Shown here piece by piece: positions 2,524 through 36,744 of a stretch of DNA of 45,008 bases. The DNA comes from Nemertoderma westbladi (lineage: Eukaryota > Animalia > Xenacoelomorpha), in assembly GCA_032718475.1 (NCBI GenBank), contig JAUCBJ010006308.1, positions 1 to 45,008 of the forward strand, in the 5' to 3' direction. Every line of letters begins with the position of its first letter. Positions within the stretch are counted from its first letter, which is position 1. The notes beneath the pieces were generated by a model that searched no databases, had not been told where the DNA came from, and saw nothing but the letters and a program-made list of their open reading frames with translations. A program made the position numbers and the translations under genes.

Positions 2524-3164
2524 AACTGACACGGAATACTGAAAGTAATAATATCTGTGTTCTGGGGCGAGCCACGTAGTGAGGCAAATGCGTGGTATGA
2601 CTACGCTGCTGGGGCGAGCCACATAGTGTTATTGTGGTAGCTGTGGCATTTTCGTATATTGCTAAAATAAGACTGTAACCAATGTTATTGAGTTATCGTT
2701 TATTGTTTTGGTTCGAAAAGAAAAGCACTGTAACCTGCTCCTTTTCGTAAATTAAGAAATCTAGGGATAAAATTAGGGAGTATTCTCAGCTAACATTACC
2801 GGCACGCAATGTAGGGTCTACTGTAAGGTTTCATCATGGTTTCGCACGTCGCACCGGAAAACAAATCTCGAATGTTGTACGAGACGCGTTCTACCAATTT
2901 CGTTACCTCTCTAAAACCAAGCGATATCTCTGCAAACCTTAGAAGAAATCTTACTTTTATGACAAGTAAATTAGGTAGCAATCATTCTCTCTATTATATT
3001 CTTCTCAAATTATATATTTTTAGGCGTGGAGGCGACCCAATCTGTAAGAAATATTAAAACCTACCTTATGCCGATAGTATTAATACTGAAATATTAATTT
3101 ATCATGTGAACACCTCAACGAAATTATTTCGCTAATTATTATTAAAAACGTACAAACATCGCAC

Positions 3165-4478
3165 CTAATTGAAACAAAGTTCACAACTAATTGGATCCAA
3201 TTTCGCAACTAATTGGAAAAGGTTCGCAATAAAAATGGAAAAAAATTCGAATTTTGATTGGAACAAAGTTTGCAATTATTAATTGGAACAAATTCGCAAT
3301 TAATTGAAACAAAGATTGCAACTAATTGAAACAAAGATCGCAACAAATTGGAACAAAGTTTGCAAATAAATGGAACGAAGTTCGCAATTAATTGGCCCAA
3401 AGTTTGCAACTAATTGGAACATAGTTCGCAACTTATTGGAACAAAAGTTCGCAACTAATTGGAACATAGTTCGCAACTAATTGGAACAAATTCGCAACTA
3501 ATTGAAAACAATTTCGCAACTAATTGTAGTTCGCAATTAATTGGAACATAGTTCGCAACTTATTGGAACAAAGTTCGCAACTAATTGGAACAAATTCGCA
3601 ACTAATTGGAACATAGTTCGCAACTAATTGGAACAAATTCGCAACTAATTGAAAAAAATTTCGCAACTAATTGTAGTTCGCAATTAATTGGAACATAGTT
3701 CGCAACTTATTGGAACAAAGTTCGCAACTAATTGGAACAAATTCGCAACTTATTGGAACAAAGTTCGCAACTAATTGGAACAAATTCGCAACTAATTGAA
3801 AAAAATTTCGCAACTAATTGTAGTTCGCAATTAATTGGAACATAGTTCGCAACTAATTGGAACAAAGTTCGCAACTAATTGGAACAAATTCGCAACTAAT
3901 TGGAACATAGTTCGCAACTTTTTGGAACAAAGTTCGCAACTAATTGGAACAAATTCGCAACTAATTGGAACATAGTTCGCAACTAATTGGAACAAATTCG
4001 CAATTAATTGAAAACAATGTCGCAACTAATTGTAGTTCGCAATTAATTGGACCAAAGTTCGCAAATAATTGGAAGAAAGTCGCAACTAATTGGAACATAG
4101 TTCGCAACTAATTGGAACAAATTCGCAACTAATTGGAACAAATTCGCTACTAATTGGAACATAGTTCGCAACTTATTGGAACAAAGTTCGCAACTAATTG
4201 GAACAAATTCGCAACTTATTGGAACAAAGTTCGCAACTAATTGGAACATAGTTCGCAATTAATTGGAACATAGTTCGCAATTAATTGGAACATAGTTCGC
4301 AATTAATTGGAACATAGTTCGCAACTAATTGGAACAAAGTTCGCAACTAATTGGAACATAATTCGCAAATAATTGGAAGAAAGTCGCAATTATTAATTGG
4401 AACAAAGTTCGCAACTAATTGGAACATAGTTCGCAACTTATTGGAACAAAGTTCGCAACTAATTGGAACAAAGTTCGT
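3165..4478. repeat. Minisatellite, 20-21-bp unit (GCAACTAATTGGAACAAAGTTC variants)
   Basis: Directly visible array with degenerate edges; explains the repetitive ORFs at 3209-4541. Confidence 0.95.
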
Positions 4479-8475: not shown

Positions 8476-9487
8476 TTAATCAAGAACCAAGGGCGTCCCT
8501 ATCCCAGAACGAAGGGGGTTCTAGTTACAAGACCAGATTTGCCCATAGTAAGAGGGTCTATGCAGCCACAGATGGCACCTCCTTTATGCTGCACGGAGGT
8601 GGCAAGTTTTCTTGATAAATGACCTAGAATACCTGACCTGACCAAAAAGATGAGAAACCAGGCGATGACCCAGGCTCACTGTACCTTTAAACTGTTAAAG
8701 TGAAACTATTTTTTTATATTAAAGTGGCCATATTCAGCCACACCGTACTTTTTGCCTTGCAATTGCAAAGATAAGTGGTTGACAGATTATTTCTACCACT
8801 GCGAGATGTAGGCCTAAGCATTATTGTTATGTGGATAATATAAAACGGTATGATGTAACTTTGTCGTCCAACGTTGGTATATTCTATTGGTTGTAATTTT
8901 AGCCAATGGAGATCGGTTTATGATATATAGTATTGCCATCCCGCCATCCTGCCAGCCTTAGTTGGCTGCTTGTAATATTGTAGTGGAAATTTCCTATGGG
9001 GATGACTCATAGATGTAAGTTGCTACTGAGGTACCGGTAGTGACGCTGTCTAATTGCTCATTTGGTTCGTAAGGTACAGACGTATGCTGCTGCTGCCCTT
9101 GCTTCTGTGTACCGGTACTGCTAATTAACGGAGTTTTATAATTCTGATATACCAGTAACGTTTGGTAAAGGTTCACTTCAAGGTTTCCAGGTACCGGGAT
9201 TGTGGTTGTTTCATTGCCTGTTTGCTACGAGTGTACCGCTGTACCCTACGACCAAAGGCAGTTTGGAGTTGCTTGTCTGCTTACTGCAGCTTCAACCTAC
9301 AGATATATACAGATTGCAGACTGACTGTCGCTGTTCTACACATTTTGCTGATACAGTTTTTAGGTAAGTTCAACCTGTCACCTAAATCATTACCGGTATC
9401 TGATTATACAGTCTGACAGTTATAGGCCCTATACCAGTGTACTGTTATAGACTGATAGAAATTAATTAAATTAATTTTGCTCAACAT

Positions 9488-9610: not shown

Positions 9611-11087
9611 ATATCTGAATATGGATGTAGGGTTAGGTTAGGACAGTAGGAGGTTACGTAGCAGTGCACTAGCAACACATCCCACTCTACAGCTCTATTT
9701 GAAATTATTCTAGGACCTATAGGTTTAAAAAGATTGAAAAATGTCCGCTTGCTTCGCTCGCGTTTATAGTCAGTTAGTGTAGGGCTCCTCTTAGCACTGT
9801 CTGGCTGTGGACAAATGGAAACAGACAGATTGAGCATGACCATTAAAAACATGACTTGTTTCAAAAGTTTTTCAATTGTCAGATTCTTCAAACCAATAAA
9901 ACCATGACAGCCTGCATGATTCAGCAGAATTTTCGTGCTCGCTACGCTCGCATCTTGTGTCTTGATCACATCTGCATTTAAAAACAGTCCGTTGACGTTG
10001 ACCTACTAGCTACTACTGCAACTACAGCACTATCTGACTATTACTGTCAGACTGTATTTATGTTTAACATAATTGGAAAATTTCCTTGCTCGCTACGCTC
10101 GCATTTTAATGTTAAAATACTGTAGGGCTACAGCATTATAAATTATATTATTGATAAATTATTAAAATTAAGCAATTACTGCAAAATTTCATAGTCAATT
10201 GTTGGCTTGGCGGGGGCGCGCATTAGATGTCATGGCTGGCGCGATTTTCGTTTAACCAGATCGCGTGTGGCGCGCTTTTTGTCAGTATTCCATATAGATG
10301 AGGGAAAGGAGCAGGTTACTGGTTAGGTTACGGGCTTTTCTAACCAATACAATAAACGGCCACTTTACCAATTGAGGGCTGGAGGGAAAGGAGCAGGTTA
10401 CTGGTTAAAGAGGCGGGCTTTTCTAGAACCAAAACAATAAAAGATCACTTTACCAAGGTGGGTCTACCGAAACCGATTTTAGCCGATAGGCTTATTAAAC
10501 ATAATGCAGTAATGTGTATGCCTATATAATTACCCTATTTATTTAATCCAGTAATCTGTTAATTCCTGCAGGTAACATTTGAGGCACAGTGGTTAAGAAA
10601 TTTTTTTATTGATTCCCCTATGCCCGTGCGTGGCGAACCACTTGTACTTTTTTCAAACTTTGATGATTCCCCTATGCCCGTGGCGAACCACTTATACTAC
10701 TGTACTATTTTCAAAAGTTTATTGATTCAGCTATGTCCAGATGTTCATGGTAATAGTACCGGAAGTAATAATAACAATACTTGATTAGCATACATCTGTA
10801 CATTGCACTGTAATATTGCATATAATTACCTAATTAACTAAAACTGCTAATTAATTATTAATAAATGCCACAAACTGCAAATTGATTTATTATTGTACAA
10901 AATGCCACAATTCCTAAAAATATGCACTGTAATACACTAAATACAGTAATATAATAATTGCTTAATAATAACTTGACTTAAAAAAAACGTACTAAAAAAT
11001 GATCGATTAATTTTATAAATTACATAACTAACTAAAAAACTATTATTAAAAATGTATTAATTATTAATTACATGAATAATACTTAGT

Positions 11088-13205
11088 TTAATTTTCGTTT
11101 AATCGCATTTAATTCTCATTTTGGTTCAATTGGCCCAACGCTAGAAAAGGCTATACCGATATCCAACCGGTCCCCAACAAGATATATAAATAATAAACAC
11201 CCAAAATCATTTTCACTAATCGGTACTTGTACCGCTGAGATCTCCCTTTTTATTCTAGAATTGGACAACTCCTGCTCAACCAATGACAATTTCCCACTAA
11301 AATTAGTAAAATTAGCTGTTAAACAAATTGCACCTCGATTAGCCGCGCTTATAAATTTATCCATTGACCAGGGTTTCTTCCCAGATGCCCTAAAGTGTGC
11401 AAAAATTATCCCCGTTTACAAAAATGGTGACCCTTTTGATGTAAACAATTATAGACCTATATCCATTTTGCCAGTTTTCAGTAAATTGTATGAACGTCTC
11501 ATAAATAACCAATTATTATCATATCTGGACAAATTCTCCCACCTCTCTGAATCACAGCACGGCTTCCGTAAAAAAAGGTCCACTACAGACGCGATATTAA
11601 TTACCACAGAAAAAATAAGGAACTGTCTCGATAATCACAACACTGCTTGTCTCATCAGTCTGGACCTTAAAAAAGCGTTCGATACGCTTAACCATAATAT
11701 TTTGTTGAAAAAATTAGAATCATACGGTATCAGGGGTCTCCCGTTAAAACTAATTGCTGACTATCTAAAGGATCGGCAGCATGTAGTTAGTATTAATAAC
11801 GTCCTGTCAGATCCTTTAATCTTGCTTTGCGGTATTCCACAAGGGTCCCTAATCTCCCCTACTTTGTTTTTAATATATATAAACGACCTTCCCAACTCCA
11901 CAAAATTAATCACCACTCTTTTTGCAGACGATACCACACTTCTCCACTTTGATAGAAATCCACATAGGTTGATACAAACAGTAAATGATGAATTAAAGAA
12001 TATTGACCAATGGTTAATAGACAATAGGTTATCCTTAAATCTCACAAAAACAGAATATATTTTTATCTCCAGTACTTATGACAACCATCCAACAACTCAT
12101 CCAATCAAAATCCGTGACCAACTTATAAAAATGAAACCATCTACTAAATTTTTAGGAACATTAATCGATAATAAATTATCTTGGAAACCACACTGTGACT
12201 ATATCCTGTCAAAAATATCTAAAACTATAGGAATTTTTTATAAATTGCGATACATATTTCCTTTAAATATACTTAGACTTCTTTACTACTCCCTGCTATA
12301 TCCTTATATATCCTATGGAATAATTCTCTGGGGAAATACATGCAAAAAATATTTAAATCCAATCCAAATAAAAATAAATAAGGTCATCCGCGCTATAACA
12401 TTCAACCACTACCAGGCACACGCCGCCCCTATCTATAAGTCCCTACATATCCTTCCTCTAGATCTACTATACAAACAAGAAGTAGCAAAATTCATGTTTT
12501 CAATACATCATGGCAACAAACCAGTAGCATTAAAATCTTTATTTCAAAAATCCTCGCAAATACACGAACATTACACTCGATCTAGCTCGCGAGGAAACTA
12601 CTTTATTCCATCTACAAGATTAGTAGTTGCACAAAAATCAATACACTATGACGGGTCAATAGTATGGAATAACCTTCCCCAAAATATTAAATTACAAAAA
12701 TCTCGAAGCAGTTTTATAAAGTACCTAAAAAATCACCTCTTCTCACTGCTTGATCGTATTTAAAACTCCGAAAACTAGTTTTCCCAAAAAATTTATTCTT
12801 ATCTAAATTGTTATTATTTAAATAATTATTTCCCCATAATTTACTTATTATTCGCGCATAATTTCATAACTAGATGTTAGTAACTATAATTTGTAAGCAT
12901 CTATGATTCGGTGAAAGCCCATCGTCCTCATTTCGTGTTCGCCGTCGCCCTTCATGTCTCTGATTAGTAAATCCACCCCTTGCCCCCCCCCCCCCCCTAT
13001 ATTCCCCACTACATCTTCCTCCTGTCATCTACCGTTATAATTACATCTAAAATTACATTAATACCGAAATATTTACATTTCATCACCTGTTATAATTTGG
13101 CCGCACTAGCTCTGTAGAGCTATGGCCTAGTCTAAACTGTGCTATGGTTTGTGCTTACGTGAGAAATGTAAAAAAATGTAAATTAAATTGAATTGAAAAA
13201 AAAAA
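11088..13205 (+). mobile_element. 5'-truncated CR1/L2-group LINE retrotransposon
   Basis: Uninterrupted RT frame, a 3'UTR, an AATTG-repeat plus poly(A) tail at ~13181-13205, and a 7-bp target-site duplication ACTTAGT (11081-11087 and 13206-13212). No endonuclease domain is present. Confidence 0.9.
11105..12763 (+). CDS. LINE ORF2 reverse transcriptase (N-terminally truncated, no start codon)
   Basis: Motifs NYRPISILPVFSKLYE, QHGFR, LDLKKAFDT, GIPQGSLISPTLFLIYIND, FADDT, KFLG. The frame stays open upstream of the track ORF (AFNSHFGSIGPTL from 11105). Confidence 0.92.
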   Translation, partial: AFNSHFGSIGPTLEKAIPISNRSPTRYINNKHPKSFSLIGTCTAEISLFILELDNSCSTNDNFPLKLVKLAVKQIAPRLAALINLSIDQGFFPDALKCAKIIPVYKNGDPFDVNNYRPISILPVFSKLYERLINNQLLSYLDKFSHLSESQHGFRKKRSTTDAILITTEKIRNCLDNHNTACLISLDLKKAFDTLNHNILLKKLESYGIRGLPLKLIADYLKDRQHVVSINNVLSDPLILLCGIPQGSLISPTLFLIYINDLPNSTKLITTLFADDTTLLHFDRNPHRLIQTVNDELKNIDQWLIDNRLSLNLTKTEYIFISSTYDNHPTTHPIKIRDQLIKMKPSTKFLGTLIDNKLSWKPHCDYILSKISKTIGIFYKLRYIFPLNILRLLYYSLLYPYISYGIILWGNTCKKYLNPIQIKINKVIRAITFNHYQAHAAPIYKSLHILPLDLLYKQEVAKFMFSIHHGNKPVALKSLFQKSSQIHEHYTRSSSRGNYFIPSTRLVVAQKSIHYDGSIVWNNLPQNIKLQKSRSSFIKYLKNHLFSLLDRI

Positions 13206-14984: not shown

Positions 14985-15745
14985 GCTGTCCTCAGCTCCG
15001 ATGTGCACTGCGGTACGTGTACACTCGCAGTAGTGTTCCTTAGCAGTTGCAGGGGAACCGCACATCCAACACACGCATTCATCTGAGGGTCTCCAGCAGT
15101 TTGTTTTTGTACATATTCGGTGGTGGCAGCCGTTCGATATAAGCAGCGCGGCAGAGCGACGATTGGTTAGTCCAGTCAGGTATATTCCAGAATCCAGGGG
15201 GTTATCAATTGCATTGAGGATCGCTGTTGTTGATGAGAACTTGCTAATTCCACACCACAACTTCCAGTAAAAAGCCCGAACGCGGCGAATATGGTCCAGT
15301 TGTGTGATTTCACTGTGGTGTGCGAATATGCTACAGCCATAGGATGTTGATGGCAGTATGATAGATTGTCATATACGTTTTGCTGATTCGATCGATATTA
15401 TACGCATATTCACCTTGGTAGCGATCATTACACAATTGGAGACTTCTTTTGAATATAAATGATCGAAATGGCCACGTGCACCATTTTTAGTAGATAGAAT
15501 AACCCCCAGGTATTGGAAAGTATTCTGGAATTCAATTGATTGGCCGTTGTATTCTAGAACATCATTACGTGATAATCTACTGATCTACCTCCCTTGCGGA
15601 ACTTTACTGCTTTGGTTTTATCGAGATTTACCTGGAGCCCATTCGTTTTACAATAATCTGCCAATTTATTTAAGCTGATTTGTACGTCTGCGATTGTGTC
15701 ACCAACAATAACAAGGTCATCAGCATACATAAAAAGGCATATATA
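14985..15745 (-). mobile_element. Decayed LINE RT 3' fragment
   Basis: LFMYADDLVIVGDT...LADYCKTNGLQVNLDKTKAVKFRKGGR (YADD catalytic motif), followed by an FQYLGV-like segment and stops or frameshifts. Confidence 0.8.
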
Positions 15746-16701
15746 AAATAAACAAGTTAAGCTGTAGGCATTAATTACGGTAATTAATTTAAATTTCACT
15801 ATAAGGATGAAGAATAGTTGCAGTGTAACTGGTGGAATATCGCCGGAAACACCTTTTTCAAACACTTGTAGCTAAAGATTGAAAGCAAAAATAAAAATTC
15901 TGGCTCACCCAGGGCTGCACGGAGGAGGAGGGAGGTGAAACTATCTACAGATTTATGTTTCAAATCCGATCCGATCCAACCCTCCCTTGCAATTAGCAAC
16001 TTAATTTTTCACATTCACAACTTAGATTGTTCGCAATGCGAACGTGGCAAACTTCTTACAGCAATTTCATGTTTACAGGGAGCAACTTCATCGGCAACCC
16101 GAGTTTTTCACCAAGTTGCTGAGAAAGTTACTCAAATGGTTGTCACGTGTAAACCGGTCTTAAGATTACATTTGCATTGTAATGTTGAAGTAATGAAATG
16201 CAGTACCGGACCGGTATAAATAATTGAAGCATTACAATTATTACAAAATTGTATGGCCATTGTATTTTAATATGGCGCGCATATGGCATAACACAAACAT
16301 ACATACAGACAGACATGACTTGTGCGCTTTTCACTTAATCTGAAGTCTGAACCCGTGTGGGTGTTGCGCGCTTTTTGTCAGTATTCCAAGCAGGGGCCCT
16401 GCCCTACATCCTACAACAAACTGTACAATATTTAACAAATTGGTTCAAAAACACAAATATTTACCATTTCCGTAGTCTGTTAGTTATAGTTTTCGGCTCA
16501 ACTTATATATTTTATAAAAACTCTGCTGCTGGTTTAAAATGTTACCGGTACATTATATATTAAAGCTATATAAATTTAATTAGGCAACTAATAGACCCAA
16601 GTACTGTAGAGTTGAGCACAGTGGCAGCAGATAATGGTATTGACAGATGGGAGGCCATGAGGAGGTAAATTGCGGACATAGCAGGCCTATCTTTTACCTG
16701 A

Positions 16702-16772
16702 GCCGCTAGCTGAATGGTTAGAGCGTCAGACTTTCAACACGGGGGTCACCAGTTCGATCCCACTTGGATGTC
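16702..16772 (+). mobile_element. tRNA-derived SINE head or tRNA pseudogene
   Basis: A-box-like TAGCTGAATGGTTAGAGC and B-box GTTCGATCC at tRNA spacing; the acceptor stem does not pair cleanly. Confidence 0.6.
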
Positions 16773-17059
16773 ATTGCCGACTTTGCAAAAGCTGTCCCCA
16801 ACAAAAAGTTATATAATACTAGGCCTTCTAGACATAGACATGTAATTAATATTTACATTACATCTTTGTGGGACTTCGCGCAGCACCAAATCTAGATGAG
16901 GCAAGCAGTACAATTCGTGTACCTGTTCAATACCCCTAGCGGTCGACATAGGAACTATAGAAGTTAATTAATGGCAGGGGGATGACACAGGCACACCCTA
17001 CGTTAAACTAGTATTACATTACAAGATCACACTAATTTATACTTTTTTATCTATTTCAG

Positions 17060-17128
17060 CTGGCGCTCTGTCCAACTATATATATATACTTCTACTACCG
17101 TACCGGTACCTACTGGATAACGATTTGG
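17060..17128 (+). other. Putative non-coding 5'UTR exon of the + strand DDX5/17-like gene
   Basis: Pyrimidine tract with TTTCAG acceptor before 17060, TGG|GTGAGT donor at 17129, no ATG inside. Predicted from splice signals only. Confidence 0.5.
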
Positions 17129-17507
17129 GTGAGTGTGATTTACAGTCGGTACTTAATTAATTAATTATCGTTAACAATTCTGATGTTTTAAGTTTTGATT
17201 TTTGCGGTGATAATAAAGGCTGATTACGCTTTTGGTGTTGGTTTCGATATTTTGAATATATAATATTACAGATACCGGTATTTTTCTAGGGATTTGATCT
17301 AAGCCTGTAGTATTTTTCTTAAATTTTATATAAAATTTAAACTTCAGATTGAGATTTAAACTTTAATTCCAAAATTATAAATTTACTATACACTTGTACT
17401 ACGTTTATATGTAGGATAATTTTATATAATAATTATAATCTATATATAAATGTTGCGTACCGGTATTTATTTATCCATTTCTAATATATATATGTCATAT
17501 GTTGCAG

Positions 17508-17736
17508 GGCTCAGTTTGAACCGGTCCACCCAATCTGGTTCGAATATGGGTCAGGCGAGGAGACGTAAATTACCCAGGCACCATTGCATTGCCATGGAAA
17601 CTGGGGAAACTTGCGTCCCAAACATAGTATGGCCACCTTGATGGAGGCTATTCGAGTCATAGGTATAGGCCCTAACACGTTTTTGGCAGCAAAAAAACGC
17701 AAAGCCGTGGCTTTGGTGTTGTATATTATATTAAAG
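17508..17736 (+). promoter_or_regulatory. Putative uORF-containing 5'UTR cassette exon (copy A) with 5' hairpin and long-range pairing arm
   Basis: TTGCAG acceptor, AAG|GTACGT donor at 17737 (weaker alternative TAG|GTATAG at 17663), 4 ATGs, uORF 17546-17641; homologous to 34565-34332. Confidence 0.65.
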
Positions 17737-17895
17737 GTACGTTGAGTTGCTTATTAATTAAAATTATATATTAGAAGTTGAACGCCGGGAAGTATTTGTA
17801 ACATAACCATGTTTGTTTAATATCTGAGTACCTGACTGCGTGTCCTAGTATGTATGTAAGGTGGGGGTGTGTGTATGTATGTGTATATAGGTGGT

Positions 17896-18186
17896 ATATG
17901 TGACGTGTGTTGTGTGTGTAGTAGGTGCTATAATATGTGACGTGTGTTGTGTGTGTAGTAGGTGCTATAATATGTGACGTGTGTTGTGTGTGTAGTAGGT
18001 GCTATAATATGTGACGTGTGTTGTGTGTGTAGTAGGTGCTATAATATGTGACGTGTGTTGTGTGTGTAGTGGGTGCTATAATATGTGACGTGTGTTGTGT
18101 GTGTAGTAGGTGCTATAATATGTGACGTGTGTTGTGTGTGTAGTAGGTGCTATAATATGTGACGTGTGTTGTGTGTGTAGTAGGTA
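17896..18186. repeat. Tandem array, 37-bp unit, about 8 copies
   Basis: TATGTGACGTGTGTTGTGTGTGTAGTAGGTGCTATAA repeated with period 37. Confidence 0.95.
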
Positions 18187-19703
18187 TTGTGTTCGCGGTA
18201 TTAGGAACTGATACCTCGGGGACTTAATATCACAGTGTTGCAATGGGATCGGGATTACAACAGTAGGGATCGGGATTTCCCTTGTCAGGATTTGTAATTT
18301 TATTGCGGCCATACTCATCCAAAAATCTCATGTACTAATATGTATTGTATATATGTATATCGAGTATCGTATATGTAATAGCATCTACTTCAATCCGAAT
18401 GAATCGCTGCCACATAAAAATGTTTATCATATTCAATAAAATGCAACAAGTGTCCGTTATATTATTTATAATAGACATTTAGACATTCATGTATATATAT
18501 TTGATACATTAAGGGCACGTGTTTGTATTAAAATAAATTGGACTATTAAGTTTATGGACCTCTTCTGAGGAATTGGTTCAAAAAATTTGAAATTTGTGGG
18601 GGAACTAATTTTGCATGTGTCTCAGTCATGGTAGCAGAATAAATACAAAAAATTATTTCTATCACCAGAAATTTTCAAAGTGAAAAATGTAAAAAAAAAG
18701 TATTTTTGTCGTTTTTAGTGATGTAACTTTTGAAATTTCTAACTTATTCTATTATTATTCTAATTTCTTTGAAAGAAGTTTTCCTGGTCGCAGAATCATT
18801 TTGAGTGTCAGTTTTAACATTTGACGACTTCCAAATTGTCTGTATGGCTGTCGGTTATATTTGACGGGACAGACTCACACGCTAAATTTGAATACTAACA
18901 TCAGAAATGAAGTCACCGACCCCGAAAACCCATATACGGAATTTTTTAGAAATATAGTATGCTTTTTATTGACGGACAGACCGGTGATTCAGAAATCAGT
19001 TATAAATCATGTAAATCAATCAATCTGTCACAAATCATCTTATCAATCATCCAATGAAAATCCTCCAAAATTACTGCAGTCGAAGTCCGTATCGGAATCT
19101 TAATTAGAGCTCTCACTTTACTTAACCAAATCGGAGTCTGATCAAGTCGGAATCAAATCGGAGCTTCCCACTAAGGTAGCACTATAGGTGATTGTAAAAG
19201 CAAAACCGTTATCTATTCTTTTACTTTATTATTCATTATTTATGTTTTTGTTATTGGAAGAAATTGTACATTTCTTTACAATTCTACAAATTTTATGCTG
19301 CAGGGTATATAATATAAATTCAGATATAGCAAATCCCGATAAATCCAGTGTAGATCCATTAATGTACTTTATTACTAAATTTAGGTTTTGGTTTGGTTTG
19401 TTATTACATAAGAGGCCTTCATTGATTTAATATTTTGTTACTCTTACTTTTAAGTACTAATTCATTGCGATAGGTACGGTATTGGATAAGTTTACTTTAC
19501 CTTCATGTACGTACGGTCTCACCCCCAATGACCCATGCCTACCGGTACCGGTATATAGGGATATTTATTTATGTGTGGATTTTTATGATTTATGATTGGT
19601 ACCGGTACATTATTATGAGTGGATATTGTGTGTGTCAACTAAAAATTGTACTTAACCCACTAGTCTACTTCACCCAGTAATCTTCCCAATGCCGCCAATT
19701 TCG

Positions 19704-19775
19704 GCCATGGCTTTTGTTTTCATTCCAGGGGGAATGCCACTGCTGTCATTGTGTGCCCTAGGGCCTGTCCTATGA
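19704..19775 (+). promoter_or_regulatory. Intronic complementary element (copy A), pairs with 17657-17711
   Basis: GCCATGGCTTT...TGCTGTCA..GTGT....TAGGGCCTGTCCTATGA is the near reverse complement of 17657-17711 and is homologous to 31991-31915. Confidence 0.7.
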
Positions 19776-20301
19776 TAAACTACAAGTTCAAATTCTCAAT
19801 AGTAACTAAACAATACGTGAGGGGGGGGGGGGGGGGGGGGGGTAATATAAGTTGCGTAATGTGGAAGCCTGGTTCAAAATTCACTGATGCCTTATATTAT
19901 AACTCCGTTATATTATAACTAAGTCGGACAACAATAGGTTATTGTTAGTTCCTCTTAACTAAACAGAAAAAAAGGCCCCATTTCTTCCGCATATTATCGG
20001 AAAGGCTGACACCAAACTAGCTACAATAACGCCTATAACGGTCATCAATATTACGGAAAATAATTGCACCAATTGGTATTGTGCCCCATTTCCTTTACCT
20101 ATAAGTATTTAAGATTTATTACTTACCGGTCAAACGTGAATTAATTATATATACTCTCCAATTAGCAAAATCTGTTGTTATTATAATATTAAATTTAGTT
20201 ACTTTCCATTATTGTGGAATGTAAAGTAACACTTTACTATTTGTTTGTCTGCAGCTCAACAAACCTAAGTTCATCCTATCTATCTTCTACACCCGAGCTA
20301 A

Positions 20302-21951
<1,650 letters not shown>

Positions 21952-23503
21952 TATTACCTCACTATCACAGTCTTTGTCTATAAACTGCGATCCGAGATGT
22001 CGGCGTAATGATGTTAGCTCCGCACGTCTACCTACATACAAACTGGTCTTAATTATATCTGAGGTAGAAGATATATACCCTCAAGTTTGAGATTATTTAT
22101 ATTTACTACAATGTAACACTCTTGTATGACTGTCAGTCTGTCAGGTCGCAGTCTATTAATTTGTTGTCGTATTATTCTAACCCTTATACGTAACAGCTAA
22201 CGTGTTATGAGTGAGTGACACCCATTTTATTAAGTATAAACCCAATTTGAGTCTTTTACACTCTTCAAATATTAGGTAACTATTTTTAAGCAACATTGTA
22301 GGACTTCACTTAACCTATAGAATATAGTTTATAAATTATTAGGTTTACTAATTCAAACAATATTTAAGTAACCCGCTGTTTTCGTAACAACTGCAAGTAA
22401 CCTATATGCTTATTGTTGCTCACTTACTTTCTTTGCTAGATATTATCAGTGTTTGTGGACTGGACAGGAACATGGTGTAACATTGTAATGTAACATTTAG
22501 GTTTGTCGGTTATTTTTGATAAAATGGGTGTCTTTATATCCTCGTTTGATCCTGTTTTTACTTTGTTTCTAAACAGATTGTATTAAAGGCAGTTACCAAT
22601 TGGTGCTGTTCAATATTCTACCAGCCTCTTTTACTTCAAGTTTTCACTGATTTTAATTTCTTGTAGCTGATATTTGGCACCAGTGCAATGTATTACTCAA
22701 TGCACGTATGTTGTTTTATGTTACTGGAAATTGCATAAGTGACCTAAATAGTTTTTAAATATTTATTTATTTACATTGGGAGCGGGGCGGGGCCTGGTCA
22801 ATTTTTGGGTTTCACGAAACTTTAATATTTAGTTTCCGCATCTTTGTATCAGCTGTTTCAATCCGCTATAAATAAGGGGGGGGGGGGTCGCATTCTGGCT
22901 TTTCGCAAACCTAAAACAAAGTTATGTAATCTGTGATATTGACTTTCGTTTATTGTTAATTCTCCGACATGGTGTGTGTGGGTTGGGAGAGCAGAAAGTG
23001 ATATCATACCATCCCGGTATGTAATTTTAATGTAGCTGTGTGTGTACCGTACACGGCAGAACGGTGCATCGGTACTACAGCTAGGTATTGACATAATTTG
23101 TGTTTTATCATTAATATTGTGGGCGACTCTATTTGTCAGAAAATATTAAATCTTTTCTTATGCCGATGACGATGTAGGCCTAGTAATGATATTTGAATTT
23201 TATTAAATTAATTTACCCTGTTAATGACTAAAGGGGACACAAAAATAATAATATCATTTTTAAGAACATGTCAAAGAAATCCAATCAAAAATAATCAAGC
23301 GACCCAATATTTTGTGGAATAAATTATATCAGATATAAGCCGACTGCAGTGTGGTAATAAGATAAAGTCAAACATACTGCACCAACCCAACACTCTCCAC
23401 AGATGATGTTGTATCTTGTATGCTACCGAATCAGTCATGGTACAGTAACTGGAGGACTTCTGATATGGTAAATAATAACATAAATAAGGGGTGTAAACGT
23501 TAC

Positions 23504-23795
23504 ACTGGTGCAGACAGTGGTGCAGACAATGATGCAGATAGTGGTGCAGACTCCTGGTGCAGACAGTGGTGCAGACACTGGTGCGGACAGTGGTGCAGAC
23601 AGTGGTGCAGACACTGGTGCAGATAGTGGTGCAGACAGTGGTGCAGACAGTGGTGCAGACAATGATGCAGATAGTGGTGCAGACTCCTGGTGCAGACAGT
23701 GGTGCAGACACTGGTGCGGACAGTGGTGCAGACAGTGGTGCAGACACTGGTGCAGACAGTGGTGCAGGCACTGGTGCAGACACTAGTGCAGACAG
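23504..23795. repeat. 12-bp unit array (GTGCAGACAGTG), left arm
   Basis: Visible array; an inverted counterpart lies at 26116-26268. Confidence 0.9.
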
Positions 23796-24044
23796 TAAAG
23801 GAGCAGGTTAGTAAAGGATCAGGTTTCAGAGGAGTATTGGGGGAACCAAAACAATAAACGTTATTGTTTTGCGGGCAAAGAATACCCACGGGCTAAGAAT
23901 ACTCGCGGGCTAAGAATTCCTGAGACCTTACTGTAGTTAGTGCATGTATATCCCCAGCATGAGACAATAACTTAATTAGCTCGTTTTATTATAATAAGCA
24001 CTGGCTCCAGTAAAGGTAAACAAATTAAAAATACTCTGTATAAA

Positions 24045-25807
24045 GGTGATTGGGGGACGTTAGTGCCCGCGGGCACTAATGTCTCAGGACTTTAGTGCTC
24101 GCGAGTCGTTAGTGCCCGGGAACCATGTCTGCAAGTGAGACGTTAGTTCCCGCGAGTCATTAGTGCCCGGGAACCATGTCTGCAAGTGAGACGTTAGTGC
24201 CCGCGAGTCATTAATGCCCGAGGACCTTGTCTGCAAGTGAGACGTTAGTACCCGCGAGTCATTAGTGCCCGAGGACCTTGTCTGCAAGTGAGACGTTAGT
24301 GCCCGCGAGTCATTAGTGCCCGAGGACCTTGTCTGCAAGTGAGACGTTAGTACCCGCGAGTCATTAGTGCCCGAGGACCTTGTCTGCAAGTGAGACGTTA
24401 GTGCCCGCGTGTCATTAGTGCCCGAGGACCTTGTCTGCAAGTGAGACGTTAGTGCCCGCGAGTCATTAATGCCCGAGGACCTTGTCTGCAAGTGAGACGT
24501 TAGTACCCGCGAGTCATTAGTGCCCGAGGACCTTGTCTGCAAGTGAGACGTTAGTGCCCGCGTGTCATTAGTGCCCGAGGACCTTGTCTGCAAGTGAGAC
24601 GTTAGTGCCCGCGAGTCAATAGTGCCCGAGGACCTTGTCTGCAAGTGAGACGTTAGTGCCCGCGAGTCATTAGTGCCCGAGGACCTTGTCTGCAAGTGAG
24701 ACGTTAGTGCCCGCGAGTCATTAGTGCCCGAGGACCTTGTCTGCAAGTGAGACGTTAGTGCCCGCGAGTCATTAGTGCCCGAGGACATTGTCTGCAAGTG
24801 AGACGTTAGTGCCCGCGAGTCATTAGTGCCCGAGGACCCCTTGTCTGCAAGTGAGACGTTAGTGCCCGCGAGTCATTAGTGCCCGAGGACCTTGTCTGCA
24901 AGTGAGACGTTAGTGCCCGCGAGTCATTAATGCCCGAGGACCTTGTCTGCAAGTGAGACGTTAGTACCCGCGAGTCATTAGTGTCCGAGGACCTTGTCTG
25001 CAAGTGAGACGTTAGTGCCCGCGAGTCATTAGTGCCCGCATTGTATTTGGAAGTTAGTATAAGGCAATCCGTATTTCTTCTTACTTATACCCCATTCAAC
25101 CAAAGTCGTCCATTAACATACACTAATTTAATTAATTCCCTAATTTAATTAACTAAAAGTACTACTCTACTTTTAAATCGTCGACAGAATGTCAGACAGT
25201 CGACTGAGTATTTTCCTTGAAATCATTAATTCATTATAATATATTAGTTAGTGCGACCTCCGACGATTATACTGTATAGTACTGCACCTTGTTTTACACA
25301 CTGTCTCCAGTAAAGTTCAACAAATTAAGTATAAACTCAATCAAAAGTAGGCTATCTATAAACAATCAAACACTGTTGCTTAATCCTCATTCCTTGAAAA
25401 CTTTACCGAAAAACCAAATAATATAATTGATACCATGTCTAACTGAGGTTAATATATTTTTTAATCATAAACGATCCAAGTTGAAATTCATATGTTAAAT
25501 AACGAGATGCGGGAACTAAAGACTGGAAAATTACCTTAGAAGTTTGAAGAAAGTAACGACTCGTTTGCATCGGCAGGAACTAAAGAAGCGGGAAATGTCT
25601 TCCTGGCTTCTAGTATTTATTACATATACTAAATAAGTAGCTAGGCGGGCACTAATGTCTCGCGGGCACTAACGTCTCGCGGGCACTAACGTCCCTTGGG
25701 ACATTAGTGCCCGCGATAATGCGACTAAGTGACCGCGGGCACTAAAGGTACTGAGATATTAGTGCCCGCGGGCACTAATGTCTCGCGGGCACTAACGTCC
25801 CAAGACC
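24045..25807. mobile_element. Non-autonomous TIR element (GG...CC ends) carrying a 51-bp tandem array
   Basis: Left GGTGATTGGGGGACGTTAGTGCCCGCG versus right CGCGGGCACTAACGTCCCAAGACC. TGTATAAA occurs at 24037-24044 and 25813-25820 as a probable 8-bp TSD (5 extra bases on the right). Confidence 0.7.
24090..25040. repeat. Tandem array, 51-bp unit, about 18-19 copies
   Basis: GTTAGTGCCCGCGAGTCATTAGTGCCCGAGGACCTTGTCTGCAAGTGAGAC repeated head to tail without spacers. Confidence 0.96.
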
Positions 25808-26268: not shown

Positions 26269-26545
26269 CCCGGAATATGTAAGTTTTGCCAAAACTTAAC
26301 AAGAGATCTGGGCACTCCCAATCAAGTTCCTTACGCATTCATTCCAAATCAACCTTAATTGAGTGCCACCAATTAATTCTTCTTAAATATTTATGTGTGA
26401 CAAAAGTAAGAATTTGGAAATATCATAATCGAAAATAACAAAATTAGTTGTATTCAATATCCGGTATTATTAGACTCAAGTCAAAGTTTGGCACCATAAA
26501 ATTTAATTAAATAAATAAAACATACAATTATTATTGTATTCAATA

Positions 26546-27941
26546 ATGAGTTCAACTAAACCTGAAGCTCCGTTTTTCCGCAAGGAAACTCCATTAAAGT
26601 TGAGCTACCTCCATCGCCCGAGTTCCAAACCGTTTCTGCGGAAAACACTGGGAAGTCTCCTCCAATCTCGGGCAATAGAATCCCGCGACGAGGTCGCCTT
26701 TGTGTTCCATGAAGAAGATGAACCTTAACCTTCGGTGAAATCTTTGAGGAAGTCGAGAAGGTAGCTAGTGGTTTCGTCGAGTTGGGTTTAAAACGCGGTG
26801 ATAGGATAGGAATCTATGGCGTGAACTCCCGCCAGTTGATGGTGGGGACCTACGCCGCCGCACGGGCGGGTCTGGTTACGGTTAACGTGAATCCTGCATT
26901 CACTCCCTTGGAATTGCGGCAGACACTCAGCAAGGCTGGAGTCAGTGCTCTGCTGGCAGACTCCGGCGTCCGACACATAAAGTACTACGACCTGCTATGT
27001 ATGGCCCTACCCGAACTGTCCAGCTCGAAACCTGGAAATTTAGAGTCAGAATTTATTCCGAGTCTTCGTCATATTATATTCATGGATGAAATATCTCGTC
27101 CGGGTTGCCATACCTACAAAGCGATTAAAAAAATCGGTGGCTCGGCATCACGTGATCAAGTTCTTCAACTGCAAACTGTGATCGAGCCAGACGATATTTT
27201 AGTGATGATGTTTACTTCTGGAACGACCGGGAACCCCAAAGTGGTTCCAGCTTCCCACCGGTCATAGTATTATTGAATCCGCGGCTAATGGCGGGAATGC
27301 GATTGGTTCTAGCACTTCTAGGCATCCTATTTCTATTTCATTCCCTATGCCATTTTTCCATGTTTCAGCTTATATTATCGCGATTATTGGTTCTGTGGTC
27401 AATGAATGGAAGATTGTCGTACCTTCACGGCTGTTCGATGCAAATAAAACCTTAGAAATGCATAGAGAAGCACAAGTGCAATGTTGTCGGGGCGGTTCCT
27501 TTTATGTTAGTCGATGTCATGAAAATTTATCAAAACTACGATTTGACTTCCCTAAAGAGCTGTGTGGTTGGTGGCATGTCCATTCCTGAAAAAATATATT
27601 CCGATGTCGCTGATAAATTAGAATTAAAATCGCCTTTACGGGCTTATGGCATGAGCGAAATCGGGATTGTGATCGCTGGTGATTGGCGATATTCCAAGGA
27701 GATGTTGCTGCATAATGACGGTTATCTCATGGAGGGGTTGGAGGTTAAAATAACTGGAGAGAACGGGGAAATTGTGTCGGTAAACACCGTCGGCGAGATC
27801 TGTTTCAGAGGTCATTGTGTGTTTCAAGGTTACTTGGAGAATGAAGAAAAGACAAAGGAATTGATGAAATCCAATGGGTGGTTTAAAACCGGGGACTTGG
27901 GGACCATGGATGAGAATGGGTACATTAACATTGTGGGTCGG
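26546..27941 (+). pseudogene. ACSF2: ACSF2-like acyl-CoA synthetase (AMP-binding) pseudogene, intronless, 3'-truncated
   Basis: LSYLH..., LTFGEIFEEVEKVASGFVELGLKRGDRIG, VNVNPAF, FTSGTTGNPK, MPFFH, AYGMSE, GEICFRG, GWFKTGDLG, IVGR. Frame breaks near 26725, 27265 and 27460; similarity stops after IVGR, so the C-terminal domain is missing. Confidence 0.88.
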
Positions 27942-30147
27942 ATACAATACGGTGCGGTTGTCACTGGAAGAGGTAAAGTCTTTACAGTTGACACTTTTAC
28001 ACTTTCTACACAACAAACGCGTGCCTAATATTTTGAATACTTATATAGATAATTTGATTTTAATGTAGGTGTGTAAACGATATGCAGACAACAGACAATT
28101 GACAGTCGACAAACACTGTCGACAACCTTAATTATGAACAAAAATAAAACTGGAACCTGTGATCTTAACTTTCGTTTATTGTTTTGGTTCGAATACTGCA
28201 AGTCACCACTGTCTCTATATATCGGTTGTCTGCTGTCGGTAAGTCTGCTTTGCATGAGATAATTGTTGCTAGTCACACATGTCAGGGTTTAACTAATAAG
28301 CTGATTTGTAATTTGTTAAATAAATAGTACAGTATAATTTTTTGCTGCTTTAATTGCTAGTGTGTAACTATAACTTGTCAACATTTTGATTATAATAATT
28401 TATATCTGTAGCTTTATATTTATATATAAAGTTATAAAAATTATTGAATGTATTAATCATAACGACATTTTTCGAAATTACAAAAAATTTGGATTGTACA
28501 TGCACAATGAATGAATGTACTGTTGTTGTTTGTACAGTATGCCCAAGCCCATGCCCAAGGACTACTTCAGTAGTCCTTGAGTATGCCGAAAGAGATCTTT
28601 TAATAGGGAAATGACGTCTAAGATACCCGCAAACAGTACAAAAAAAGTTGAATTTGTAGCTAGCTTTCAAATTAGAGCCCTTGAAGTCCTTCCTACCTTG
28701 GCTGAGTTCATTTAATATAAAACATTAAGGGAAAGGAGCAGGTTGCAGTGTCGGTGTTTTCTAACAAAGACATTATAAACAAAACTTTATTTCATATCAT
28801 TCTGCCTTGCGTCCTTAAGTGGTAGCTAAATGACTCACCACACTGCCTACCGGTAGTCAGGTGACTAGATGTGCTATAAACCAACCACAACCACTCACCA
28901 TGGTATAGAGCATGAGTTGGGGTTATAGTCCGAGAAGCATAGTTCTAGAAGGAAAATGTTGAGGAGTAAAAAGTGAGTCGAATAGTTAACGTAATATTTT
29001 TTGCTCGTAATAAATGCTATACATTTAAAACACCATATTCCTATAAGAATAACTACCAAGCGCATGATACATATTGCTACACATTCAAAACGAATTAATT
29101 CAATACAAAGGAAAGCCTATGGCTACGGTAGAGCTAACTAAACTATAAAACCAGACTTGAACTTTAAAAACTCGAAACACAACCTGACAAGAATTGCCCG
29201 AAATTATGTATTGCTGCATTAATAAAAGAACAACAATGTACTGCGCTAATATAATTGTAATTAATGTGCAATACTAATAATGTATCGATCATAATTTCCA
29301 CTCAATATTATAACATCAACAAGGTAATAAAACATGATAATATACTTTATTTTAACGTATATCCAATATTTCCCCGCATACAATATATGATAAAACAAAA
29401 ATCTTGCGTGGGTGGGTAGCTAGCTGCGTGCGAAAGCAATAAATGTACAAAATTTTCACGAAAAAGAATGAAGAACGCACAATACTATTGTACAAAAAAT
29501 AGTGATGCTGAGATACTGTATAACAAACGAATATAATTGTGTAGGCGATACGATATTATTATCACACACAATAGTGACTGATTCTCAACAACATAGGCTA
29601 AATCAGTGCCCCTGTCATATTTCGTGTTCTATGGGAGCTATTTACACTTGAATGATTGTAAAGTAGTAAATTAGAGTGATGATAAGAGTGGTTTGTTTCA
29701 CGAACGAAGATTGTGAGTGAGTTAAATAAAGCAAAAAAGTTTGTAAAAAGTAGTTTGGATAGTTAAGTGGCGCTTAGGTCAATAATTGCTTATTCCCTTT
29801 GCATCATTCATTGAAATATGAAAGCTGTGGGACATGCAATGAACGATTTGTTAGGGTTAATTTTGTATCAGAGCATTTTAATATAGTTAGTCTTAAAGGA
29901 TTATTGGATACAATAGTTTCGAAATTCTACAGTTTGCACAATTTTGTAGAGAATCAGCCATAAACATGTTTATAAAACAGCACAGCACAAAAACGACAGT
30001 ATCTATACCCCAATACGCCGTCCATCACAAAGAGTATAACCGGAAATTAATTAAATATCAGTTGATAAAACAAAAATGAAGTTATCAGCTTCTCCAACAA
30101 ACCAAAAGTCATCAGTAACAATTCAGTTGATAACAAAGTATTTATAT

Positions 30148-31743
<1,596 letters not shown>

Positions 31744-31914
31744 TCAACACGGGTACTGTACTTAAACAGCGGCAGACTCAGCTCAAGTTCTTCAACCTAA
31801 GAGGAAACATTACAAGTCATAACATGACTAAGTGACTTCCTATCTATAAATAGAACAATAAAATCCAGCAAACGTAATATATTGTTAGAGATAGTTAGAA
31901 AATATTTTTAACTT

Positions 31915-31991
31915 GTAGGACAGGCCCTATTGCACAAAATGGCAGCAGTTAAAAAATACCTTTTGTTTCTTTATTGAAAATAAGCCATGAC
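31915..31991 (-). promoter_or_regulatory. Intronic complementary element (copy B), pairs with 34403-34351
   Basis: Transcript sense GTCATGGCTT...TGCTGCCA....GTG..ATAGGGCCTGTCCTAC is complementary to GTAG.GATAGGCCCTATCAC.....TGGCAGCA...AAGCCATGAT. Confidence 0.7.
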
Positions 31992-32141
31992 ATATAAATA
32001 TATAAACAACATACCGAATAGGAGCTCATGCTCATTCTGATAACATTAACAACTCACACAGAAATCCTACGTCCACTCCACACTGAATACCATTGGGCTA
32101 ATACCAATTCATATTATATATATAGCCAAGTATATTCTATA

Positions 32142-34331: not shown

Positions 34332-34565
34332 CAATATTTTCCATTTTCAAATCATGGCTTTGGGTTTATTTGCTGCCAAAAACGTGATAGGGCCTATCTC
34401 TACCTATAATACACCATACACAGCATCCTCGTGGAATGCCATCTATTTAGATACATTTTACTCCAGACGCAACAGCCAGTTTTACAATTACCAGCCGTGT
34501 GTCCGTAAATATGTCTTCTTGTGACCCATATTCGAACCAGTATCGATGCCGGTTCAAACTGAGTC
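34332..34565 (-). promoter_or_regulatory. Putative uORF-containing 5'UTR cassette exon (copy B)
   Basis: Long pyrimidine tract and TTCCAG acceptor, TTG|GTAAGT donor at 34331 (weaker alternative TAG|GTAGAG at 34403), 7 ATGs, uORF 34529-34488 (MGHKKTYLRTHGW*). Upstream donor ACG|GTAAGG at 34860. Confidence 0.65.
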
Positions 34566-35912
34566 CTGGAAGATATGAGAAAAACAATATTAGGAAGATG
34601 GGTAGGTAGGGGTAGTAGGATAAGTAGGGGTAGACCTAGCACTATAATAATTTCTAGTAGGGGGCCCATAAAACTGAACTGACCAGTGCTTGTCCTTTCT
34701 GCCTTTAACCATGGCTACATGATGACAGACCACTAAATATATTCTGCCAAATTGCAAAAATTTAAAAATAGAACCAAAATTCAAACGAACAATCGAGTTA
34801 AACAGTTAAAAGTGATTGAAAGTGCAGTTAAGTTTGCTACCGGTACAAGGTTACCTTACCGTCACATCACAACAATCAGACAGTAGCAGTCTGGCAGTTA
34901 GCAGTCAGGTAAGGCAGTTGGACTTGGAATGGAACAAGGAACTGACCTGACAGACTGACTGCTGGACTGAAGACTGCAGGACTGTATGGTCTACAGGTCT
35001 ATGGCTGTATGGCATGCTGGTATCTGGCAGTCTGTGGTCTGGCGTCTGGCTGTATGGTATCGCTATCCAGCTATCGGTATCTGGGTATGTACACTGTACA
35101 GACAACTGCAAACTGAGACAAGCAAGCCATGTAGGCCTAACTCCAGAACTCAGTCTGTCAGTAACTGGTAACTGCAATAGCTGATAGCATACTGGCATAG
35201 ACTGATAGAGCTGTAGAGTTAGTGTTATTTAGATACTGTCATAGACTGATAGAGCGCCTTTCTGCTCTTGCGTTGGCAACGGGCAGACGGCAGACGGGGA
35301 TATTTGACAGTAGAATGAATACAGGCAGACAGGAATAGGCCTACCTGAATACTGACTGGCTGGGTTTGCGTACCTGTCTTTTTAAGATTTGTAGACTACC
35401 GGACCGGCAGGCAGCAGGGCCGGTACAGATTCGTCGATTAGGCTATACCAGTACAGCAGTATACAGGTATACCGACCGACCAGCTGACAGACTGACCAAA
35501 CGGTACGGGCAGACGGGTAGGCCTTCACTTCAATTCCTTGGCAGCTTGGTACCTGGGTATGGTTGATGGTACCGCGGTTACTATACTTCAGATCAGAACT
35601 TGAGTCAGCTACAGTGTCTGACAATCTGAGTGTAGACTGGACTGCAGCACTGCATCAGCCAGTCAGCACTGACAGCTTGACTGGCTTGTTTGAGCCTTCT
35701 TTGATCTTGTCGACTTGGGACTTTGTGAAGCTGATCCTCTCCTTATTGCAGTATTGTGCTGTTGTTATTGTAGGCTTATCTTCTCTTCAGTCTTCACACA
35801 CCACTCGGTCTGCAGGTCTGACAGTTTTGTCTACCGGTACCGTAGCGCGTAGCGGTAGTGCAACTTATGCAAGTTTCCTGAACTGAACTCTCAAATACAT
35901 TGTTGCTGTCTT

Positions 35913-36744
35913 GCATGGAATACTAACATGTATTCACCATCAGACCATGTCCTGGAATATAGTGCCGTTATTCTGGTACATGCACAAAACGGGTCTGGTA
36001 CATCCAAAAATTTTTTTTTGCAAATCTTAATGAGATTGCATGAAATTTGATACAGAGATAGTTTCACCTCCCTCCTCCTTGCTGGGTGAGCCAGAATTTT
36101 TACTGACCGTGCAAGGATTCCAAATATGTAAAAATACAGTATATGAATTTGGTGGGAAATGGCTGAGATATGGGCATTCGAATTTTGCATGTATACAATG
36201 TTCTAGAACATTTTGTTTATCTCATAAGTAGCTGGCAACAACTGAACAATGCTATGCCTACATGATAATACTAGTACGTGGATATTCAATAATTCATACG
36301 TAATCAAAATATTGTAGAACATTGTGTATTTATTAAATAGAATAAATGGCCTGCATATCTCAGCCATTTACCAACCAAATTCAAATATTTTTACATATTT
36401 GGAATCCTTGCATGGCCAGCTTTTCCACTAGTATCTACAAATCACTATAAGGTTGAATATTAACTGTGCTGTAACTGGCGCAATATCGACGGAGACACTT
36501 TTTTTAAACGCTTGTAGCTATTCAGCTATTGAACGAAAGCGAAAGTAAAAATTCTGCCTCACCTGCAGAGGAGGAGGGAGATGGAACTAACTCTGTTTCA
36601 AATTTCATGCAATCTCATTACAATTTGTAAAAAAATTTGGGTGGGGGGGGGGGGGGGGGGGGGCATGTACCAGAATAACGACACTATATTCTAGGACATG
36701 GTATAATGTATACATGTATGTATACAGTATTTAGTATTCCATGT
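35913..36744. mobile_element. Foldback-type MITE with long imperfect TIRs
   Basis: ACCATGTCCTGGAATATAGTGCCGTTATTCTGGTACATGC versus GCATGTACCAGAATAACGACACTATATTCTAGGACATGGT, plus further inverted blocks. A related fragment is at ~15797-15965. Confidence 0.75.

Follow-up and report, generated by a model that had tools for sequence, protein, structure and literature searches.

A structured 5'UTR segment in two DDX5/Dbp2-type helicase genes of Nemertoderma westbladi: a candidate autoregulatory poison exon

The mechanism by which DDX5/Dbp2 helicases sense their own level through a conserved intron, which in DBP2 and DDX5 interrupts the coding region, has been open since 1995. A window of 45,008 nucleotides from Nemertoderma westbladi (the whole of the stretch analysed; contig JAUCBJ010006308.1) contains two helicase genes, here called A and B, each with a segment of similar length in its leader that is bounded by splice signals. 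In an earlier note this segment was proposed to be a cassette exon rich in upstream ATGs and a candidate poison exon. The locus raises the question of whether the segment can be understood in this way, what exactly has been kept between the two genes, and what might control its use.

Host genes and leader layout

The exons that frame the leaders of the two genes, which are in convergent orientation within the window, are the following.

17060..17128, plus strand: upstream non-coding exon of gene A, with its own acceptor at 17060, donor GTGAGT and no ATG (splice scan)
20255..21951, plus strand: coding exon of gene A, acceptor at 20255, with an unbroken ORF at 20323-21951 for a DDX5/Dbp2-type helicase of 542 aa with RGG tails
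34860..34970, minus strand: upstream non-coding exon of gene B, its 5' limit tentative, donor after 34860 or alternatively 34855, ending in ATG-TGA, with TCAGTY matches at 34970, 34958 and 34945
30148..31796, minus strand: coding exon of gene B, acceptor at 31796, with an unbroken ORF at 31737-30148 for a paralog of 529 aa

Both proteins carry DEAD and Helicase_C domains above the Pfam cut-off, as well as RGG-rich tails. The top matches in the PDB are DDX17 (E 8e-206) and Dbp2 (E 1e-181), followed by DDX42 as the next full-length family (E 1e-112), and helicase residues 57-495 align in a single stretch to residues 5-444 of DDX17. Among the 120 matches listed, the closest homologs are animal DDX5/DDX17/Dbp2 proteins with an identity of at most 69%, and the named entries are mostly DDX5, DDX17, dbp2 or p68. 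Genes A and B are members of the DDX5/DDX17/Dbp2 helicases. Neither protein is present in the 15-billion collection that was searched. In a quick tree of 49 rows (the two window proteins and 47 of the 120 listed homologs), A and B are sisters (100) on a long branch among animals, the placement of which is without support; they are old, lineage-specific DDX5/Dbp2 paralogs. A coding-region intron, as in the conserved DBP2/DDX5 case, is absent from A and B, of which the ORFs are uninterrupted.

The age of the pair is unevenly recorded along the coding region. Four-fold sites differ between A and B at 42 of 66 positions in codons 1-150 and at 14 of 29 in codons 61-150, outside the glycine-rich start, against 9 of 126 in codons 151-450, where identical DNA runs of 128-169 nt occur. 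The near-identity of codons 151-450 between these inverted paralogs is a gene-conversion pattern, and the N-terminal part is near silent-site saturation. Introns and UTRs of the two genes are unalignable, except for the cassette segment and one distal intron block. A and B align no better than shuffled sequence elsewhere in the leaders; this holds for the upstream intron, for the downstream intron over its first 500 nt, for both UTR parts and for the upstream exons, whose homology was rejected.

Since the upstream exon of gene A has a strong acceptor of its own, for which no donor partner was mapped nearby, it is either not the first exon or marks a trans-splice site. In gene B the last base of the upstream exon is 34860 (GT at 34859-58) and not 34861, as had been given earlier, and a second donor is present at 34855. 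Upstream of this exon, about 1 kb (35900-34870, minus strand) looks promoter-like, with a higher GC content, abundant CAG, CTG and CAGT and several TCAGTY matches; no counterpart was found within 4 kb of gene A. On the upstream side of gene A, the 4-mer profile nearest to that of this region (weak score) belongs to ~9000-9364 (plus strand), which ends in AG/GTAAGT and is a candidate distant first exon of gene A, with LINE insertions in between. A LINE-type reverse-transcriptase ORF of 558 aa (11087-12763, plus strand) and a second RT fragment (15554-15871, minus strand) lie upstream of gene A. A stretch at ~16700-16790 (plus strand) is tRNA-like by eye, possibly a SINE head; ARAGORN called no tRNAs in its scan. 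A block shared by both upstream regions (15892-15946 / 36102-36056) was rejected as a promoter element because of a third copy at 36539-36592; the three-copy repeat end (15892-15946, 36056-36102, 36539-36592) happens to lie ~1.2 kb upstream of both upstream donors. Between the helicase genes, at ~26542-28028 (plus strand), there is an intronless AMP-binding (acyl-CoA synthetase-like) gene that is truncated and split over several frames, likely due to pseudogene formation or sequencing errors. Tandem arrays occupy 149-984 (68 bp x 12), 3152-4477 (22 bp x 61), 23502-23796 (12 bp x 24), 24088-25038 (51 bp x 18.6) and, inside the looped-out intron of gene A, 17896-18185 (37 bp x 7.8).

The segment as a cassette exon

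The segment itself and its splice signals are located as follows.

17508..17736, plus strand: candidate cassette exon of gene A, 229 nt, ATGs at 17546, 17594, 17629 and 17641; 68% of its bases are paired in the predicted pre-mRNA fold
34332..34565, minus strand: candidate cassette exon of gene B, 234 nt, 7 ATGs; 71% of its bases are paired in the predicted fold
17481..17507, plus strand: branch-point match (CTAAT, branch A at -24) and CAG acceptor of gene A; positions -6 to -3 predicted to pair with exon +48 to +51
34566..34593, minus strand: branch-point match (CTAAT, branch A at -25) and CAG acceptor of gene B; positions -8 to -4 predicted to pair with exon +48 to +52
17737..17742, plus strand: cassette donor GTACGT of gene A, within the loop closed by a predicted long-range duplex

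The segment lengths, the flanking CAG and the donors GTACGT (A) and GTAAGT (B) noted earlier were all confirmed by a sequence check. In a consensus-level splice-site scan, a usable acceptor and donor flank the candidate cassette in both genes, and the cassette donor of gene A is the best-scoring donor in the upstream region of that gene (8 of 9 consensus positions). Branch point, acceptor and donor are retained in both A and B. The downstream introns, from cassette donor to coding-exon acceptor, are 2518 nt (A) and 2535 nt (B) long. Local alignment of the two cassettes gives a score of 78, with a maximum of 25 in 100 shuffles. According to BLAST and shuffle tests, the conserved stretches between the leaders are limited to blocks in the exon and the distal intron block, and each occurs in two copies only within the window. 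The 3' block might be taken for a branch point and CAG acceptor inside the exon (CCCTAAC...GGCAG in gene A); this reading was set aside, because in gene B the branch A and the base it pairs with have both changed, and the duplex described below explains the whole block. Both cassette donors also have a short predicted intronic pairing partner (17735-17740 with 17828-17833, plus strand; 34334-34327 with 34302-34295, minus strand), which is weak and unalignable between the genes.

The upstream ATGs deserve a more cautious interpretation than they received before. Their numbers, 4 in A and 7 in B, were counted correctly, as was the lack of ATGs in the UTR parts of the coding exons (68 nt in A, 59 nt in B). 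The expected numbers are 4.75 and 7.8, respectively, from 2000 dinucleotide shuffles, and intron windows of 230 nt contain 4.2 ATGs on average, with at least 4 in 59% of the 44 windows. The counts are at chance level and the segment is therefore not rich in upstream ATGs; any exonised stretch of intron DNA from this genome would carry them, and they are not a conserved feature. The first ATG is positionally conserved, as had been claimed, and opens unrelated peptides of 31 aa (A) and 13 aa (B), whose stop codons end 95 and 156 nt upstream of the donor. Its conservation is due to its location in a conserved hairpin arm; a conserved uORF peptide was rejected on the sequence check. A second positionally common ATG (17629 / 34442) opens another hairpin, P3.

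What these ATGs could do if the segment is included can be predicted from their context. In both genes the first one stands in a strong start context (A at -3, G at +4). Reading from 2 of the 4 upstream ATGs in A (95 nt) and from 5 of the 7 in B (68-156 nt) stops more than 55 nt before the predicted junction, so that, given the predicted junctions, inclusion places a stop beyond the 50-55 nt that mark poison exons coupled to nonsense-mediated decay (AS-NMD). Since the coding region has no intron, the junction between cassette and coding exon would be the last in the mRNA. The cassette uORFs are out of frame with the main ORF, except for one in-frame uORF of 5 codons in B that stops 54 nt before the main ORF; another uORF in gene A ends 2 nt before the main ATG. 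Skipping was earlier expected to give a clean leader. The upstream exon of gene A lacks ATG, but that of gene B ends in the start-stop ATG-TGA, and the skip leader of B is consequently not ATG-free. The proposed poison exon thus keeps its conserved branch point and acceptor, in gene A its top-ranking donor, and its strong-context, out-of-frame uORFs stopping more than 50 nt before the junction, and loses the argument from ATG number. Judged on these sequence features, a cassette of which inclusion would silence the gene is the best reading of the segment.

Predicted RNA fold of exon and intron

Both segments fold better than shuffled versions (z-scores -3.19 and -2.79; 1 of 200 shuffles equally good for each). 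Three local hairpins are predicted.

17508..17552, plus strand: P1 of gene A, a 17-bp predicted hairpin from exon nt +1, burying a second CAG (+5 to +7)
34565-34523, minus strand: P1 of gene B (fold prediction)
17562..17617, plus strand: P2 of gene A, positioned as in gene B, with mostly unalignable sequence
34505-34464, minus strand: P2 of gene B (fold prediction)
17629..17651, plus strand: P3 of gene A, 23 nt in both genes, starting with ATG
34442-34420, minus strand: P3 of gene B (fold prediction)

The arms of P1 show a single difference between A and B, from G-U to A-U, and the loops are unrelated; 19 of 3910 pieces of 46 nt from the window fold as well as P1. Its sole bulged base is the A of the first upstream ATG. 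The acceptor AG abuts the P1 stem and, with pairs on both sides, is itself predicted to be unpaired in a small internal loop, which differs from a site that is wholly buried, the second CAG being paired; the bases just 5' of the AG are predicted to pair with exon +48 to +52 in both genes, by differing sequences. In P3, which is misaligned in the MAFFT alignment of the segments, there are one two-sided and two one-sided changes and one mismatch in gene A. According to fold prediction, P1-P3 persist in the included leader. Searching the whole window against Rfam gave no matches at E<=1 and thus no known ncRNA family (miRNA, snoRNA). The hairpin pattern gave no matches in viral contigs and 7 loci in metagenome contigs, none with a helicase tblastn match nearby, which were treated as chance. 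In the metagenome contigs L002 (5001-5026) and L003 (2231-2256) the P1 core pattern occurs with four more matching bases and no helicase nearby, again regarded as chance. The pattern of the exon 3' block had no matches in genome contigs.

The 3' part of the exon is predicted to pair at a distance, with the following arms.

17656..17724, plus strand: exonic arm of the duplex in gene A (P4-P7 and extensions; fold prediction)
34335..34398, minus strand: exonic arm in gene B (fold prediction)
19689..19776, plus strand: distal intronic arm of gene A, junction hairpin at 19721-19736, ending 479 nt before the coding-exon acceptor
31919..32008, minus strand: distal intronic arm of gene B, junction hairpin at 31973-31950, ending 123 nt before the coding-exon acceptor

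Self-comparison of the window revealed one further shared intron block, 19739-19772 / 31949-31916, which is complementary to the conserved 3' block of the exon. It was picked by conservation first, and pairing was examined afterwards. When 6422 pieces of the window, from both strands, were scanned as partners of the 45-48-nt 3' block of the exon, the distal block came out best, antisense self-copies aside. Its predicted duplex energy is -45.4 kcal/mol in A and -45.6 in B, whereas the pieces average about -15 (sd 5) and the best unrelated partners reach -33.1 / -37.8; when the exon block of one paralog is paired with the distal block of the other, the values are -41.4 and -41.9. Of 200 random 45-mers, 5 had a partner at least as stable as -45 kcal/mol in the 2.6 kb that follow. 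Including flanks, the duplex is predicted at -73.1 (A) and -59.3 (B) kcal/mol, compared with minima of -57.5 and -45.8 in 300 partner shuffles each. Co-folding and unconstrained folding of 2.4-3.2 kb gave the same helices in both genes: P4, P5 and P6 are predicted to come first, P7 follows after a junction from which the intron forms a short hairpin, its sequence unrelated in the two genes, and weaker pairing then continues in the direction of the donor. The unconstrained fold of the 3.1-3.2 kb pre-mRNA contains 58 (A) and 46 (B) pairs that span more than 1 kb. The distal arm is located 2.0 kb (A) or 2.3 kb (B) downstream, and the donor falls within a predicted loop of 1.95 kb (A) or 2.3 kb (B).

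The comparison of the duplexes involves two sequences, too few for covariation statistics, and helices chosen from their own folds, so that it is circular in part; in it, 49 of 59 homologous pair columns are the same, a number that gene conversion between A and B could inflate along with the identity of the conserved blocks, 6 have a one-sided and 2 a two-sided change, and 2 are unpaired in gene A only. Pairing occurs in both genes in 57 of the 59 columns, 8 of which changed. G-U is found in 20 and A-C in 1 of the 118 pair cells, and the antisense strands fold more weakly, in the case of the gene B duplex by only 5 kcal/mol. The G-U excess and the weaker antisense folding are as expected for selection on the sense RNA and not for a DNA inverted repeat. 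The conserved part of the segment would thus be an RNA fold, including a duplex of 2-kb range that extends beyond the coordinates considered earlier, and such a fold would supply the control mechanism that was absent from the earlier reading.

Proposed control and its precedents

We consider it somewhat probable, on the basis of the predicted folds and by analogy, that both DDX5/Dbp2 paralogs carry a fold-locked segment that is likely opened by helicase and then spliced in as a poison exon. P1 would form once the first 45 bases of the exon have been made, crowding the 3' splice site. About 2 kb later, the distal intron block would pair with the 3' third of the exon, which would leave the donor in a closed loop and bring the upstream donor closer to the coding-exon acceptor, so that skipping to a productive mRNA would be the default. 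This default is suggested by the predicted geometry, in which the fold lies within one intron when the exon is skipped and has to be opened at both ends for inclusion. High helicase activity may melt the short helices (mostly 4-12 bp between bulges), leading to inclusion or to stalling of the long intron, a step proposed because of the precedents of the plant DEAD motif and yeast DBP2; by the same analogy the helicase itself may be the opener. The included leader would gain out-of-frame uORFs and keep P1-P3. Given these hairpins and uORF stops that precede the last junction by 95 and 156 nt, the main ORF would be poorly translated and the mRNA would probably be an NMD target. The arrangement would replace the autoregulatory coding-region intron of DBP2/DDX5 that both genes lack, and the paralogs may well regulate each other.

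The closest functional parallel comes from land plants. [quoted passage not shown] The present element would work like such a hairpin at a 3' splice site plus a long-range pair. Compared with the plant motif, which resides in an intron within the coding part of land-plant genes and leads to a premature stop codon, it lies in the 5'UTR of an animal gene, with an animal-type protein and an uninterrupted coding region, it would poison through uORFs and not through an in-frame stop, and an extra predicted duplex of 46-58 pairs reaching 2 kb encloses the donor. For yeast DBP2 and human DDX5, PMC4695336 links a conserved intron to autoregulation. Genes A and B share with yeast DBP2, S. pombe dbp2 and human DDX5/p68 the helicase subfamily and a long intron with conserved internal sequence that would limit productive mRNA (PMC4695336), but their regulatory intron precedes the start codon of an intronless coding region.

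Kilobase-range complementary pairs that favour skipping are described for BRD2, BRD3, PHF20L1 and CASK in PMC10789245 and PMC10573301. Kilobase-range conserved pairing predicted to favour skipping, poison-exon control and convergent re-acquisition at non-homologous positions are common ground with these genes, and conserved complementary regions more than 1 kb apart, as in PCCR-type pairs, are present in both paralogs. In the genes as described there, arms in the flanking introns loop out the whole exon; here the exon provides one of the arms, just the donor lies in the loop, and the host gene codes for an unwinder. The element is a member of neither the DEAD-motif nor the PCCR family, and is likened to the former by function, without claimed homology. 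With regard to the output, the alternative exon of ~224 nt in intron 1 of Arabidopsis At-SR34a adds 5'UTR uORFs and is NMD-sensitive, and the same study notes uORFs that fail to trigger NMD (PMC3315328). It resembles the predicted exon in being an NMD/uORF-type alternative 5'UTR exon of similar length in an RNA-processing gene; the text consulted describes no RNA-structure gate, and the NMD-linked uORF overlaps the main start there, whereas none does here, the nearest ending 2 nt before. In the literature searched, which leaves out most subscription papers, no animal DDX5 gene with a structured cassette exon in its 5'UTR was found.

A poison exon gated by the same structure could also respond to another input, such as transcription speed, temperature or another RNA-binding protein, as proposed for BRD2/BRD3. 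A partner located 2.0-2.3 kb downstream, in introns of 2518 and 2535 nt, suits a kinetic race in which the distal arm is made before the donor commits, and elongation slowdown leads to poison-exon skipping according to PMC10789245. This alternative is nonetheless unlikely, since P1 is local and requires no delay, and the host gene encodes an RNA unwinder of a family with reported intron-based self-control. Quite unlikely is also that the segment is seldom spliced in and acts as a decoy, with a fold that compacts the 3.1-kb leader intron and unwinding that exposes decoy sites, upon which the pre-mRNA would be retained and degraded in the nucleus; a variant would be a trans-spliced outron. Intron retention is the output for yeast DBP2 and one output for DRH1 (PMC4695336 and bioRxiv 10.64898/2026.01.23.701338), the ATG content is unselected, and the unpartnered acceptor of the gene A upstream exon would fit, but usable splice signals at matching positions at both ends and the kept segment length (229 / 234 nt) argue for an exon that is used. 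With strong donors, conserved branch points and hairpins that persist after inclusion, one may also think of a constitutive or mostly included 5'UTR exon, in which the duplex is an RNA bridge that helps the donor reach the far acceptor, and translation is tuned by the hairpins and uORFs. This is very unlikely, as the duplex takes up exonic bases and leaves the donor within the loop, and 4-8 upstream ATGs, a hairpin of -20 kcal/mol and a gene A uORF ending 2 nt before the main ATG would seem a poor design for a housekeeping helicase. Least probable is the absence of any splicing role, with P1 as a small-RNA precursor or the blocks as inverted ends of a transposon or patches of gene conversion: in P1 the arms hardly vary and the loop does, Moore et al. 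are said to have described in 2011 a miRNA hosted by a conserved intron of human DDX5, and the window is repeat-rich, another shared block being a repeat (15892, three copies), but a 17-bp stem is short for a canonical pre-miRNA, Rfam is silent over the window at E<=1, each block has two copies only in the window, and the duplex has conserved asymmetric loops, a G-U bias and a same-place junction hairpin of unrelated sequence.

The segment is therefore most likely an autoregulatory poison exon that came to lie in the leader once the ancestral intron had been lost. It is possible, though we hold this wider history only tentatively, that the lineage lost the ancient DDX5/Dbp2 autoregulatory intron together with all coding introns, and regained the feedback through a helicase sensor with two locks in the 5'UTR, P1 at the acceptor and the 2-kb duplex around the donor, which both paralogs have kept since an old duplication. 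In the literature found, a structure-based sensor of this kind has been shown only in plants. The locus offers a compact, fully mapped animal candidate, with two diverged natural versions and individually named pairs, suitable for disruption and restoration in a minigene. It suggests that relocation to the 5'UTR may let the feedback loop outlive its ancestral intron, a point relevant to the retention or replacement of regulatory introns. If true, the plant DEAD sensor would have a counterpart in an animal that is of new architecture and acts through uORFs, and self-sensing through RNA structure would be so necessary for this helicase that it was re-invented after intron loss.
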